The notes beneath the pieces were generated by a model. That model had not been told where the DNA came from. It did not search any database and worked only from the letters and a program-made list of their open reading frames with translations. Source: Clostridia bacterium (GTDB lineage Bacteria; Bacillota; Clostridia; TANB77; CAG-508). From it: DNA of 64,000 bases. Every line of letters begins with the position of its first letter. Position 1 is the stretch's first letter. Location: positions 9,809 to 73,808 of the forward strand of contig CAAEQN010000114.1 in the NCBI GenBank assembly GCA_900758165.1. The letters are read 5' to 3'. Below, in pieces: positions 44,513 to 56,181 of the stretch. The translations under genes were made by a program, and so were the position numbers.

Positions 44513-45421
44513 ATGGCTACAAATCCAATGCAAAAAAAGACAAGAAGTTCATTTATTTTAGGAGTACTTATAACATTTTTAATTATGGCTGTTATAGTAG
44601 GACTTCTATTATATCAATTAAAGAAAATGAAAGATGAAGAAGATGCAAGAAAAGCACAACAAGTAATAGCGTATGCTTTAAATACTGACGTAAAATCAGG
44701 AGACTTAATAGATGCAAGCAAATTAGCAAAAATAGCAACAGATAAAAGTGCTGCACCACAAAATGCAGTTAATCAAGCATCATTATCAGAGAAAACTATA
44801 GCAAAAATAGACTTATCTAAAGGAACTATAATTACAAATTCTATGATAACAGAAGCTGATAATCCACTTACAAATGATTTAAGATTACAAGAATATAATA
44901 TGTTAAAATTATCTAGCCAAATAGCATCGGATGATTATATTGATATCAGATTAAGAATGCCTTCAGGATTAGATTATATTGTAGTGTCTAAAAAGAAAGT
45001 AGAAATTCCTATAATAGAAGGTGTTGAATCTGAAAATACAATATGGATTAATTTATCAGAAGATGAAACTTTAGCAATGAGTAATGCAATAGTAGAAGCA
45101 TATAAAGTTGAAGGAGCAGTTTTATACACAGCAAAATATGTAGAGCCAGGAACACAAGAGAAAGCAACACCAACTTATGTGCCAAGTGCAGAAGTTGTTA
45201 ATTTAATAACACAAAATCCAAATGTTGTTCAAGAAGCAAAAACAGCAATGTATAATAGATATCAATCATATACTTCAATAAGAAATAATATAAATGCAGA
45301 AGCTTCGGCATTATCTTCTGATGAAATAAGAAACAAAATAAATACAGGAGTACAAAAAGAAATAACTACATCACAAGAACAAAGAAAATCTTATTTAGAC
45401 AGTTTAGCATCAGGTAATTAA
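44513..45421 (+). CDS. CpaB/RcpC-like Flp pilus assembly protein
   Basis: 302 aa with RBS AGGAGGAAAAG. It has an N-terminal TM and then a SAF-like segment (VIAYALNTDVKSGDLIDASKL ... IAKIDLSKGTIITNSMI). The following DDYIDIRLRMPSGLDYIVVSKKKV block resembles the CpaB beta-clip region. Confidence 0.6.
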   Translation: MATNPMQKKTRSSFILGVLITFLIMAVIVGLLLYQLKKMKDEEDARKAQQVIAYALNTDVKSGDLIDASKLAKIATDKSAAPQNAVNQASLSEKTIAKIDLSKGTIITNSMITEADNPLTNDLRLQEYNMLKLSSQIASDDYIDIRLRMPSGLDYIVVSKKKVEIPIIEGVESENTIWINLSEDETLAMSNAIVEAYKVEGAVLYTAKYVEPGTQEKATPTYVPSAEVVNLITQNPNVVQEAKTAMYNRYQSYTSIRNNINAEASALSSDEIRNKINTGVQKEITTSQEQRKSYLDSLASGN

Positions 45422-45455
45422 AAAGCGTAGATGCAGTTTGGGCTAGGAGGAGAAT

Positions 45456-46154
45456 ATGGAAAGGATTGGCTTTATTGGAGCTTTTGACAAAACAGATCTT
45501 ATATTATATGTTTCCAGAATTTTAGTGGAAATGGATAAAAAAGTATTAGTAATAGATTCAACAGTAAATCAAAAAGCTAAATATGTTGTTCCAACAATTA
45601 GCCCTACTGTATCTTACGTAACAGATTTTGAAGGAATAGATGTAGCGGTAGGGTTTACAGATTATAATGGAATAAAAAGATATTTAGGAATGCCAGAATC
45701 GGCAGCACTAAATTATGATTATGTTTTATTAGATATGGATAACCCTGAATTATTAGAAAACTTTGATTTATATGGAACTACAAAAAAATATTTTGTAACT
45801 TCTGCAGATTTATTTTCCCTAAAAAAAGGACTTGAAATATTAAGTGGAATAAGACAACCTGTGGAGTTGACAAAAATATATTTTTCTAACACAATGTCAC
45901 AAGAAGAGGATGATTATTTAAATTTTTTATCATTAGGATATAAAATAAAATGGAATGATGAAAAAATATATTTTCCACTTCAAACAAGTGATCAAGATAT
46001 AATAATAGAAAATCAAAGACTATCAAAAATAAAAGTTAGGGATTTAAGTTCAGAATATAAAGAAACATTAATGTTTTTAGCACAAGAGATAGATCGTAAT
46101 GACAATACACTTTCGATAAAAAAGGCATTTAAGCAATTAGAAAAAGGAGTATAA
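45456..46154 (+). CDS. MinD/ParA-fold TadZ/CpaE-like protein with degenerate P-loop (copy 1)
   Basis: 232 aa. The N-terminus IGFIGAFDKTDLILYVSRILVEMDKKVLVIDST has MinD/ParA topology but no GxxGxGK(T/S). DYVLLDMD sits at the Walker B position. Confidence 0.45.
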   Translation: MERIGFIGAFDKTDLILYVSRILVEMDKKVLVIDSTVNQKAKYVVPTISPTVSYVTDFEGIDVAVGFTDYNGIKRYLGMPESAALNYDYVLLDMDNPELLENFDLYGTTKKYFVTSADLFSLKKGLEILSGIRQPVELTKIYFSNTMSQEEDDYLNFLSLGYKIKWNDEKIYFPLQTSDQDIIIENQRLSKIKVRDLSSEYKETLMFLAQEIDRNDNTLSIKKAFKQLEKGV

Positions 46155-46155
46155 A

Positions 46156-46992
46156 ATGGCAATAGTATCTTTTTGGAGTAATAGTGAAAAAGAAACAGGT
46201 CAAACATTATCATCAATAGCTGTTGCAACAAATATGGCAATACAACATAATTATAGAATATTAATAATATCAACAGGGTTTCAAGAAAAAACACTAGAAA
46301 AGAGTTTTTGGTCAGAGCCAAAAAAATCTTTAACAGCCTCAATGTTTGGACTAAAACAACAACCAGGATTAAATAGTGGAATAGAAGGATTAGTAAAAAT
46401 AATTCAGAGTAATAGAACATCGCCCAATATAGTAGCAGATTATGCAAGAGTAGTTTTTAAAAACAGATTAGATGTATTACCTTCACCATCAACAAGTAAT
46501 ATAAACGCATACAATGAGATAACAAAATATTATGCAGATCTTATAAAAGTAGCAAATAAAGATTATAACTTAATTTTTATAGATATAGATAAAAGAATGA
46601 ATGAAAATGATAAGAAAGCTATTTTACAAGCATCCGACATGGTTGTACTAACAATGAAACAATCCATGGAATCATTAAATGCATTTTTAGAATTGAAAGA
46701 AAAAAACGATGTCTTAAAAAATGAAATATTATTAATAGGAAAATATGATAGATATTCTAAATATAATATAAAAAATATAACAAGATATTTAAGAGCAGAT
46801 ACTTATATATCTGCAATAGATTATAATACATTATTCAATGAAGCTTCAGAAGAAGGAAAAGTGGCAGACTTTTTCTTAAAATATAGAAGCATAAAAGATA
46901 AGAATGATAGAAACGTAATTTTCATACAAGAGACAGATGTAACTTGTGAAAATATACTAGCAAAATTAAAATCACTACAAGTAAGAACATAA
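46156..46992 (+). CDS. MinD/ParA-fold TadZ/CpaE-like protein with degenerate P-loop (copy 2)
   Basis: 278 aa, starting 1 nt after the previous stop. The N-terminus is IVSFWSNSEKETGQTLSSIAVATNMAIQHNYRILIISTG, and NLIFIDID sits at the Walker B position. Confidence 0.45.
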   Translation: MAIVSFWSNSEKETGQTLSSIAVATNMAIQHNYRILIISTGFQEKTLEKSFWSEPKKSLTASMFGLKQQPGLNSGIEGLVKIIQSNRTSPNIVADYARVVFKNRLDVLPSPSTSNINAYNEITKYYADLIKVANKDYNLIFIDIDKRMNENDKKAILQASDMVVLTMKQSMESLNAFLELKEKNDVLKNEILLIGKYDRYSKYNIKNITRYLRADTYISAIDYNTLFNEASEEGKVADFFLKYRSIKDKNDRNVIFIQETDVTCENILAKLKSLQVRT

Positions 46993-54481: not shown

Positions 54482-54491
54482 TGAAATAAAG

Positions 54492-54538
54492 GCAGCTTTA
54501 CTACTGTAATAATTCAGTTTAAAGCTGCATTTTTATTT
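54492..54538 (+). terminator. Rho-independent terminator
   Basis: GCAGCTTTA ... TAAAGCTGC (19-nt loop) followed by ATTTTTATTT. Confidence 0.6.
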
Positions 54539-54555
54539 AGAAAGGTATATTACAA

Positions 54556-56181
54556 ATGAAATTACAACATATAATAATAATTTTTCTTATAATAATAGTA
54601 CCAATAGTTTTGGTATTATCAGCATATATTAATTCTAATATTAAAACAATAAAGAATCAAACTGCATATAAATCTTCTTTGATAAATTCAACATATGACT
54701 CTATAAAAGCTTTTCAATTGAATACAGCAAATAATATGTATTCTACAATTTCAAATTCAAAAATAAGAGATATAGAAGCAGCAATTAATGTATTTTATAG
54801 TTCATTGGCAACAAGTTTGGGAACGAGTGGATATAGCCAAGATGATTTAAAGAGTTATGTTCCGTCTATAATATATACTTTATATGATGGGTATTATATT
54901 TATTCTAAATATTACGATACAGTAGAAAAAGATTATAAATATGGACTAAAACCATTTATAAGTTATTCTTGTAGATATGTAAAAGGAAGCAATTATGATT
55001 TCGTTGTAAATTATACACTAGATAATACAATTACAATTATAGGAAAAGTAAAAGGAGAATATGTTACAAAAACAGGACATCTGCTTTATCTAAAAGACAA
55101 TAATGATATACCAAATGAAGAAATTTTAAAAGAAAGTTTAATAACGCTTGACGACAATAACAATCAAGAATTTAAGGAATATGAATATACTATTTATAAC
55201 AGTCAAAAAATATACAAAGAACCTAACGAAGATAAGTTTTTCTTTTATAGTAGCGAATATAAAAAGGATTATATATCTAACCAAAATGTATTATCGAATG
55301 TGAAGGTTTCTAATGGACATTTATATAGTACAAGTGCAAATAAATATTATACAGAAGCTAAAATTTTTACTGATTGGGTAAATGAAAAATTAAGTGATAT
55401 AACTCAAAAAGATGCGGTAGATGCTAGTGGAAATCAAATAAATGATTTTGCCACAAATATAGGAAATGAAAAGATATTTAAAATTTCAAATACTAATAAT
55501 CCGTTGGCAACAAGTTCAACTTTTAATGAACATAGAATGAATGTTATAAGAAAATCATTAGAAGATAATGTAACAAAAGCAATAGCTGCTTTTTCAAAAC
55601 ATTCAACTATACAATATCAATTTGCAATGCCAAAATTAACTGAAGATGAATGGTATAAGATAGAGAATAATGTATGTATAATAACATTTTTACAAGGACT
55701 ACCAATTGGTGGAAAAATGTTTAACCAATATTGTGTTGTCTCAAATGATACAAATAAAGAAACAGTAGGAAACAATTCAGTATATATAATAGATACTACT
55801 GGAGAATATCATAAGCCAGGATGTAAGACTTTAATAAAAAGATTAGCAAACAACAATGCTAATATTTTACAAGCGTATCCAAGCAGTGAATTTAAAGTAA
55901 AGAAGATATCTTTAACAGGAGCTGACTCAAATGCACATACACAAATTACAGATTCTACAGACGGATTATATGCATACTTTTATCCGGAAGAATATACTGC
56001 ATGTTACGATTGTATTGTAACTGCTTCAAATGTATATAGCACAGATGACATTATTAATGATAAAGTAAAAGATAATGAAGGAAATAAAATAAATATAACC
56101 AATATAAGAACCATATACTTAACAGCACTAGCTAGGTCTAGATATGATTTATACTTAACAAATGGATATTTTGGATATTAA
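54556..56181 (+). CDS. Large membrane-anchored extracellular protein (TadG-like position)
   Basis: 541 aa. It has an N-terminal anchor IIIIFLIIIVPIVLVLSAY followed by an N/Y/T-rich ectodomain. It is the last gene of the Tad-like block. Confidence 0.5.
   Translation: MKLQHIIIIFLIIIVPIVLVLSAYINSNIKTIKNQTAYKSSLINSTYDSIKAFQLNTANNMYSTISNSKIRDIEAAINVFYSSLATSLGTSGYSQDDLKSYVPSIIYTLYDGYYIYSKYYDTVEKDYKYGLKPFISYSCRYVKGSNYDFVVNYTLDNTITIIGKVKGEYVTKTGHLLYLKDNNDIPNEEILKESLITLDDNNNQEFKEYEYTIYNSQKIYKEPNEDKFFFYSSEYKKDYISNQNVLSNVKVSNGHLYSTSANKYYTEAKIFTDWVNEKLSDITQKDAVDASGNQINDFATNIGNEKIFKISNTNNPLATSSTFNEHRMNVIRKSLEDNVTKAIAAFSKHSTIQYQFAMPKLTEDEWYKIENNVCIITFLQGLPIGGKMFNQYCVVSNDTNKETVGNNSVYIIDTTGEYHKPGCKTLIKRLANNNANILQAYPSSEFKVKKISLTGADSNAHTQITDSTDGLYAYFYPEEYTACYDCIVTASNVYSTDDIINDKVKDNEGNKINITNIRTIYLTALARSRYDLYLTNGYFGY

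Follow-up and report, generated by a model that had tools for sequence, protein, structure and literature searches.

The question raised by this locus is what kind of machine could be encoded by a set of Tad-like pilus genes that has neither a recognizable Flp pilin nor a prepilin peptidase. The locus lies at positions 44513-56181 of the + strand in a 64,000-nucleotide stretch of a Clostridia genome (hereafter, the window, meaning the whole 64 kb that was analysed), and it consists of 12 co-directional, tightly spaced genes that we read as a single operon. It was found that the locus is the putative TANB77-type, Tad-like pilus cluster reported for an uncultured gut Clostridia order by Kim et al. 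(Nat Commun 2024;15:10726; PMC11680825), and since both the locus and its Tad-like reading have already been published, neither is a discovery. What is new here is the invariant, leaderless-looking N-terminus of the subunits without a nearby peptidase, the missing T2SSF signal in the predicted platform protein, and the occurrence of relatives on conjugative plasmids of culturable Firmicutes.

Correspondence with the TANB77 pilus cluster

The published pilus cluster of the order TANB77 comprises 10-14 genes and is conserved in 122 of 129 TANB77 species. Its reference version, proteins 927-938 of CAG-245 sp000435175, was annotated as CpaB (358 amino acids, aa), TadZ (231 aa), CpaE (280 aa), TadA/CpaF (640 aa with one transmembrane (TM) helix), a 693-aa protein with eight TM helices, six pilin-like proteins of 143-237 aa and, as the last gene product, the 621-aa "pilin 938", an activator of dendritic cells that acts through TLR4 (PMC11680825). 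The cluster in the window has the same 12 genes in the same order and comes from the same lineage, and the lengths of the products are nearly equal: 302/232/278/639/692/211/161/142/141/216/177/541 aa here, compared with about 358/231/280/640/693/165/170/143/146/237/178/621 aa in the paper. The open reading frames (ORFs) of a CAG:245 scaffold gave the sizes of the paper minus one for the first eleven genes. The genes starting at 44513, 45456, 46156, 47020, 48976 and 54556 correspond to proteins 927, 928, 929, 930, 931 and 938, respectively, and the predicted topology is also the same, with one TM helix in the ATPase, about eight in the platform and an N-terminal anchor in the pilin-like proteins. 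The differences are only those expected between orthologues, such as 302 aa versus about 358 aa for the CpaB-like protein and 541 aa versus about 621 aa for the last protein. A search with the ATPase as a single sequence matched 529 GTDB loci, the best 80 of which had 76-94% identity; the ATPase was 94% identical to that of Clostridium sp. CAG:780 and 91% identical to that of Clostridium sp. CAG:245, and Ca. Scatovivens metagenome-assembled genomes were also among the best genome matches.

The CpaF/TadA-like secretion ATPase (47020-48939, 639 aa) provides the strongest of the family signals, although every family match of the cluster products was below the curated Pfam or NCBIfam cutoff. This hexameric-type ATPase has a TM helix at residues 1-27, followed by a long family-specific N-terminal domain. 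When residues 268-539 were compared as a single sequence with solved structures, CpaF alone was significant (E = 5e-10), and a profile built from 15 family sequences matched CpaF with E = 9e-16; further matches of this profile were to VirB11 (7e-5), archaeal GspE2 (1.5e-3), PilT (7e-3) and FlaI (8e-3). The ATPase is clearly nearest to CpaF, yet it scored 23.4 bits against Pfam T2SSE, the gathering score of which is 24.9, and the tblastn identities were bimodal (40-68% inside the family, at most 28% to canonical CpaF), which sets the family apart as a discrete sister group. The Walker A motif (TGxQGxGK[TS]T), Asp box (R..E...E), Walker B motif (NI[IL]GE) and His box (THHA) were invariant across the family, and therefore the ATPase looks active. 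The Walker A sequence GEQGCGKTT, called atypical in the preliminary description of this DNA, is a normal GxxGxGKT motif.

The gene that opens the cluster (44513-45421) encodes a 302-aa CpaB/RcpC-like protein, anchored by a TM helix at its N-terminus, that also has a SAF-like domain. Its match to the CpaB model TIGR03177 was sub-threshold (E = 5e-7; 29 bits, cutoff 71) and that to Pfam SAF/ChapFlgA was weak; the Paenibacillus orthologue has the Pfam SAF domain, the plasmid orthologues are annotated as SAF-domain proteins, and the protein is present in 85 of the about 90 related loci that were surveyed. Two soluble TadZ-like proteins follow. The first (45456-46154, 232 aa), kept in 83 related loci, has a predicted MinD/ParA fold, the PDB match of its family profile to MinD being marginal (E = 0.01), and its P-loop is degenerate (GAFDKTD). 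The second, TadZ/CpaE-like protein (46156-46992, 278 aa) matched Pfam ParA/CbiA (E = 2e-4) and, as a family profile, the ParA-family structure 3ea0 (E = 5.6e-6), and the Walker A lysine is replaced (ETGQT). The degeneration of both P-loops was seen directly in the family alignments. The Tad combination of a ParA-like TadZ/CpaE protein and a SAF-domain CpaB/RcpC protein was thus found, with all of its signals weak.

Compared with the canonical Tad/Flp systems (tad of Aggregatibacter and cpa of Caulobacter), the cluster shares the order CpaB, TadZ/CpaE, CpaF/TadA, platform and pseudopilin-like genes, and the ATPase is nearest to CpaF among all solved structures. In contrast to those systems, there is no Flp pilin (40-60 aa, with the motif G/xxxxEY), no TadV and, as in a monoderm, no secretin; the platform is one 692-aa chain without recognizable T2SSF domains, the ATPase has a TM anchor and an extra N-terminal domain of ~260 aa, and the subunits are proteins of 140-220 aa with a globular domain. 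The Tad loci of Firmicutes and Actinobacteria are likewise of the monoderm type with TadA, TadZ and TadE/F-like minor subunits. The tad operon of the Firmicute Bulleidia extructa, for example, starts with tadV-pilA1-pilA2, and its Flp-type pilins lack a globular domain (PMC12786226), whereas neither tadV nor Flp-type pilins are present here and the ATPase does not exceed the 28% identity to canonical CpaF given above. The archaeal Epd/Aap-type pili, the relatives from which Tad derives (PMC6668835), have in common with this cluster a single large platform polypeptide and very short segments before the helix, and the K/R-A/G|hydrophobic pattern seen here resembles archaeal class III sites. However, the ATPase profile was far weaker against GspE2 and FlaI than against CpaF, the archaeal systems depend on PibD/FlaK/EppA peptidases, none of which is linked here, and the residues before the helix are invariant here rather than variable. 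The CpaF match, the bimodal identities, the Tad gene order and the absence of Flp, T2SSF and A24 signals agree with the preliminary view of a divergent Tad-like locus, and the profile searches did not place it squarely within the well-described Firmicute Tad systems.

Pilin-like subunits and the question of cleavage

The platform gene is followed by genes for six small N-anchored proteins (211, 161, 142, 141, 216 and 177 aa), rather than the seven counted initially, and for the 541-aa protein. The products of the genes at 51072-51707 (211 aa, MENATKAL), 51720-52205 (161 aa, GTG start, (M)ENASKAL), 52797-53222 (141 aa) and 53244-53894 (216 aa, MENAAEAL) open with M/V-E-N-A-x-(K/E)-A-L, which runs into a hydrophobic TM helix. 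The 142-aa paralogue (52287-52715) starts with MKKNIF and has no MENA sequence, and its orthologue was scored as having a signal peptide in PMC11680825; it keeps the C-terminal strand motif that is common to five of the small proteins, which in the 161-aa protein reads FKCTxI..N.T..I...F. The conserved 177-aa protein (53948-54481) has an invariant Pro22 inside its TM helix. Its orthologues were found in 77 related loci, including all of those outside TANB77 that are numbered L084-L090 below; this protein belongs to the core shared with the plasmids of Bacilli, and it is likely a minor or priming subunit; nothing in Pfam was recurrent over 30 members of its family, and TadE did not match. The last N-anchored protein (54556-56181, 541 aa) is the orthologue of pilin 938, and its N-terminal ~330 aa are conserved in the plasmid systems. 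None of the small anchored proteins matched a Pfam, NCBIfam or PHROG family, and, as had been noted from the sequence, the Flp motif G/xxxxEY is present in none of the cluster products, nor was there a match to Flp_Fap. The median identities were 81% for the ATPase, 63% for the platform and 36-44% for the pilin-like proteins, a graded conservation as expected for a motor versus exposed subunits.

The 141-aa protein, with the N-terminus MENASKALIIAG and a composition rich in Gly, Ser, Thr and Ala, is the candidate major subunit. Its gene has the strongest ribosome-binding site and is preceded by an 81-nt spacer, and its relatives form 7039 clusters (90% identity, E <= 0.01) without a family name. 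In 120 homologues with 46-94% identity, M1, E2, N3, A4, S5, A7, L8, I9, I10, A11 and G12 were invariant. An AlphaFold2 model (predicted local distance difference test score, pLDDT, 85) consists of a helix at residues 2-53 and then a small alpha/beta domain, a predicted architecture that is pilin-like. In 88 sequences, 253 MENA-type ORFs begin at the first possible start codon, with an upstream in-frame stop at a median distance of 18 nt and a Shine-Dalgarno-like core in 227 of the 253. Therefore, there is no room for a conventional leader, and the pilin-like subunits are predicted to be made without one.

It had been proposed that no A24-type prepilin peptidase is encoded in the 64-kb window, and this was upheld, all of the polytopic ORFs being otherwise identified (only FtsK, CdaA, DUF2651, the platform, CmpB and signal-peptidase-I-like proteins). 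No A24 peptidase was found within 10 kb in four diverse related loci with precomputed Pfam assignments, none was shown by the about 90 related loci, and none is annotated on the whole of plasmid pTHECO01, the gene tables of PLSDB being incomplete. The signal-peptidase-I-like genes at 16.7-27 kb were considered as processing enzymes and rejected, as they form a separate cluster without a link to this one. The CmpB protein encoded at 56226 was likewise rejected as a hidden peptidase or core part, because it adjoins the cluster in only 12 of about 90 related loci. A literature search for leaderless or peptidase-independent pilins returned nothing relevant.

We tentatively suggest that the subunits are used without cleavage and that their mature N-terminus is the conserved Met-Glu-Asn-Ala end; this would account for the absence of a prepilin peptidase accompanying the system. 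Glutamate at position 2 blocks methionine aminopeptidase, and a protein with an acidic second residue is a poor substrate of peptide deformylase. Because deformylation is disfavoured in this way, the MENA end may stay formylated and uncharged, in analogy to N-methyl-Phe1.

The proposed filament machine and its plasmid-borne relatives

The reading that we favour, and consider fairly probable, is that the cluster encodes a filament machine of a monoderm cell, derived from the Tad/CpaF branch of type IV systems, in which the 141-aa MENA protein is the major subunit and minor or tip positions are taken by the conserved proteins of 177 and 541 aa, and that this machine was domesticated from a plasmid module. 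In the proposed mechanism, the ATPase would dock on the polytopic platform, positioned by the TadZ-like proteins, and would pull the anchored subunits out of the membrane by means of their N-terminal helices, after which the subunits would be polymerized into a surface filament. The hypervariable 141-aa protein would make up the bulk of the filament, and the other MENA paralogues, the 177-aa protein and pilin 938 would be minor, priming or tip subunits. Such a filament may help the cell to adhere or to contact the host in the gut. Its genes probably go back to a module of conjugative plasmids in Bacilli and Clostridia that became domesticated; on these plasmids, the module may bring donor and recipient into contact.

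Several observations weigh against this proposal, and the platform is prominent among them. The protein in the platform position (48976-51054, 692 aa, about 7-8 TM segments) has no Pfam, NCBIfam or PHROG family of its own; its relatives form 1157 clusters (50% identity, E <= 1e-3), all of about 670-690 aa, with named members in Paenibacillus, and its AlphaFold2 model is all-helical (pLDDT 87, predicted template modelling score 0.79). In 56 family members, no Pfam domain matched at E <= 1, T2SSF (PF00482) included, and thus the TadB/TadC platform with T2SSF domains that is typical of Tad systems was not found. The family profile had no match among PDB sequences, Foldseek gave no significant fold match in the PDB, and alignment by hhalign with TadB and TadC of Rhizobium gave a probability below 1%. 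An internal duplication was rejected, as the two halves of the protein aligned to each other with an hhalign probability of 5%. Kim et al. used Foldseek with larger libraries and reported that the first half is TadC-like and the second half TadB-like (PMC11680825). The assignment as a platform is drawn from gene position, topology and that Foldseek result, a likeness which was not reproduced here against the PDB. Of the earlier description of this protein, the single 692-aa chain stands, whereas its TadB/C-like identity obtained neither sequence-profile nor PDB fold support.

The other points concern the subunits and the filament. Foldseek gave no fold match in the PDB for the model of the pilin-like protein. 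The published study of the cluster contains no microscopy and no filament was seen, the organism being uncultured; the words "prepilin", "peptidase" and "filament" have zero occurrences each in its text, and leader peptides are not a subject of it (PMC11680825). As for the uncleaved N-terminus, most paralogues agree at K6-A7|L8 with the cleavage pattern of archaeal class III (FlaFind-type) sites, and in distant relatives the length of the segment before the helix varies by a residue or more (MNNASTAL, MSNAQRAL, MSTNASKAL in Thermobacillus, and MDSPVVKK). Because of this variation, an unlinked peptidase could process the subunits.

The alternative that follows, which we regard as possible but doubtful, keeps the same machine and makes its subunits class III signal-peptide proteins with a 7-residue leader, MENASKA, that is cut before Leu8 by a peptidase encoded elsewhere, such as the PilD/ComC of a competence or type IVa pilus system. 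Positions 6-11 (K/R/E/D, A, L, I/L, I/M, A) match the FlaFind-type pattern in most of the 253 paralogues, but position 6 is also N, Q, T or H, and the subunits lack Gly at -1, Glu at +5 and the motif G/xxxxEY, which by established specificity would make them poor substrates of the bacterial PilD and TadV. The length before the helix is not fixed in distant relatives, as such a leader would allow, yet residues 1-5 are the most conserved, whereas leaders are normally the variable part. It is known that MSH loci lack a peptidase of their own and borrow one from other systems (PMC6668835), and PilD genes are present in other pilus operons of cultured hosts, Paenibacillus being an example; from a module on a self-transmissible plasmid, however, one would expect that a peptidase comes with it, and none is annotated on pTHECO01. 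The virulence pilus of Paenibacillus thiaminolyticus was considered as a relative of the cluster and rejected, as it is a canonical PilB/PilT/PilC/PilD type IVa system.

Relatives of the proposed filament machine were found well beyond the gut Clostridia. The survey of about 90 related loci included Paenibacillus contigs (L084 and L085), two unrelated metagenomic lineages, and the plasmids pTHECO01 of Thermobacillus composti (L088), pBsph of Lysinibacillus sphaericus (L089) and pRSJ17_1 of Clostridium argentinense (L090), the last of which is the plasmid of the type G botulinum toxin (BoNT/G). The module has the order SAF/CpaB-like protein, proteins of about 230 and about 275 aa, ATPase of about 620 aa, platform of about 690 aa, small anchored proteins, and proteins of about 180 and about 330 aa. 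A profile query of a protein database retrieved close TANB77 relatives only and added no diversity. The cluster has been called exclusive to TANB77 from a search of gut species genomes only (PMC11680825). Because Bacilli and other Clostridia were found to have homologous clusters as well, frequently on plasmids, this exclusivity holds only within gut species genomes.

In the loci of Bacilli and Clostridium (L084/L085 and L088-L090), the genes after the module encode an SLH or cell-wall-binding protein, a DUF5704 protein of 1000-1300 aa, and GGDEF and HD proteins, which suggests an associated surface adhesin and control by cyclic di-GMP, both of which the TANB77 version lacks. A distant copy of the module was also observed on a 303-kb JGI metagenome contig (L086), where almost no gene has a Pfam family and the neighbours include ankyrin-repeat and RtcB proteins; this contig is possibly a megaplasmid or giant mobile element.

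The plasmid context bears on a second alternative, namely that the cluster is not an adhesive pilus but a short pseudopilus or envelope-spanning transfer device, for mating-pair formation or for DNA or protein export, that was inherited from conjugative plasmids and that TANB77 kept for secretion or for contact between cells. On pTHECO01, the module directly adjoins a type IV coupling protein, relaxation-family proteins and a Tcp-like type IV secretion system; on pRSJ17_1, its neighbours are a C40 hydrolase, a VirB4-like ATPase and TopB, and the same neighbours were counted at locus L087. Plasmids of the pBsph type are conjugative by experiment (PMC13239906), and the best NCBIfam match of the ATPase was to a model named "conjugal transfer-associated TadA", weak and far below its cutoff. 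In TANB77, however, the cluster sits on the chromosome, with truA and dacB-type housekeeping genes on either side and no conjugation genes in the window of 64 kb, and it is conserved in nearly all species of the order, as given above. Moreover, the sequences of the candidate major subunit fall into thousands of clusters, a hypervariability that is typical of an exposed filament and not of a buried pseudopilus. We therefore regard a transfer device as improbable. A prophage origin was rejected, because no PHROG phage families were found among the products.

The favoured reading of a filament machine can be extended to the family as a whole, in a form that we consider rather unlikely as a complete statement: the machine, encoded on the chromosome in TANB77 and on plasmids in Bacilli and Clostridia, would be a type IV filament system that never cleaves its subunits; these would have a mature Met-Glu/Asp/Asn-Asn-Ala end and need no prepilin peptidase, and the plasmid versions would in addition be ATP-driven pili with a link to conjugation in Gram-positive bacteria. 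If true, the family would be the first known to break the rule of type IV filaments, namely that their subunits are made with a class III signal peptide which an A24 peptidase processes, and truly unprocessed subunits would change the accepted definition of such subunits. By itself, the plasmid context makes it conceivable that conjugation in Gram-positive bacteria can be helped by a pilus. The TANB77 cluster has been proposed as a molecular link between TANB77 abundance and the response to checkpoint immunotherapy (PMC11680825). Since homologous modules are carried by culturable and genetically tractable hosts (Lysinibacillus sphaericus with pBsph, Paenibacillus polymyxa M1, Thermobacillus composti and Alkalihalophilus pseudofirmus OF4), direct study of piliation, processing and function is possible.

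Surroundings of the cluster and other observations

The upstream boundary of the operon is a terminator-like hairpin at 44325-44353 (+ strand), and a promoter-like site lies downstream of it at 44440-44467 (+ strand). The promoter scan was uninformative in this AT-rich DNA (GC content of the window about 26%), as it gave 113 sites versus 109 expected from shuffles. No terminator-like hairpin was found inside the 12-gene cluster in a scan of the locus. All 12 genes are preceded by a Shine-Dalgarno-like site, and an in-frame stop lies 6-45 nt 5' of each start. Directly upstream of the cluster, a gene at 43873-44298 encodes a small polytopic DUF2651 protein with a C-terminal tail that is Asp/Asn-rich and Cys-rich; the gene occupies the same place in 20 related loci, and the hairpin parts it from the operon. 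On the downstream side, the gene at 56226-57110 (+ strand), a neighbour outside the conserved core, encodes a membrane protein that had been assigned to the CmpB/DUF1113 family, and PF06541 matched it with E = 1.2e-48.

The window also encodes Spo0A at 4449-5267 (Spo0A_C, E = 1.5e-46) and the sporulation protease YabG at 5741-6550 (Peptidase_U57, E = 9e-87). From these two genes, an origin of the window in a sporulating lineage is plausible, in line with the description of the organism as a Gram-positive spore former, and it follows that this reduced-genome TANB77 organism keeps core sporulation genes.

A different ATPase of the same broad kind was observed outside the window, on the 270-kb C. 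botulinum plasmid p1_CDC51232 (L094), which encodes a third, different CpaF/VirB11-like ATPase (468 aa, 26% identity), followed by unannotated membrane-protein genes. This is another unclassified secretion-ATPase module.

Finally, the region at 16688-30130 of the window contains four to five paralogous signal-peptidase-I-like genes (16688, 19135, 20373, 26184 and possibly 17217), interleaved with genes for paralogous small N-anchored proteins (19682, 20900, 27471 on the minus strand, 26734 and 29168), some of which have a TasA/camelysin-like "SYAWF(T/I)" signal motif. On these features, the region looks like a SipW/TasA-type fibre or surface-structure cluster. Upstream of it, at 8321-16656, two giant proteins (1092 and 1518 aa) without a Pfam family are encoded, and within it, an unannotated block at 22442-26154 includes a gene for a DUF2357-domain protein (25021-26154, E = 7e-12).

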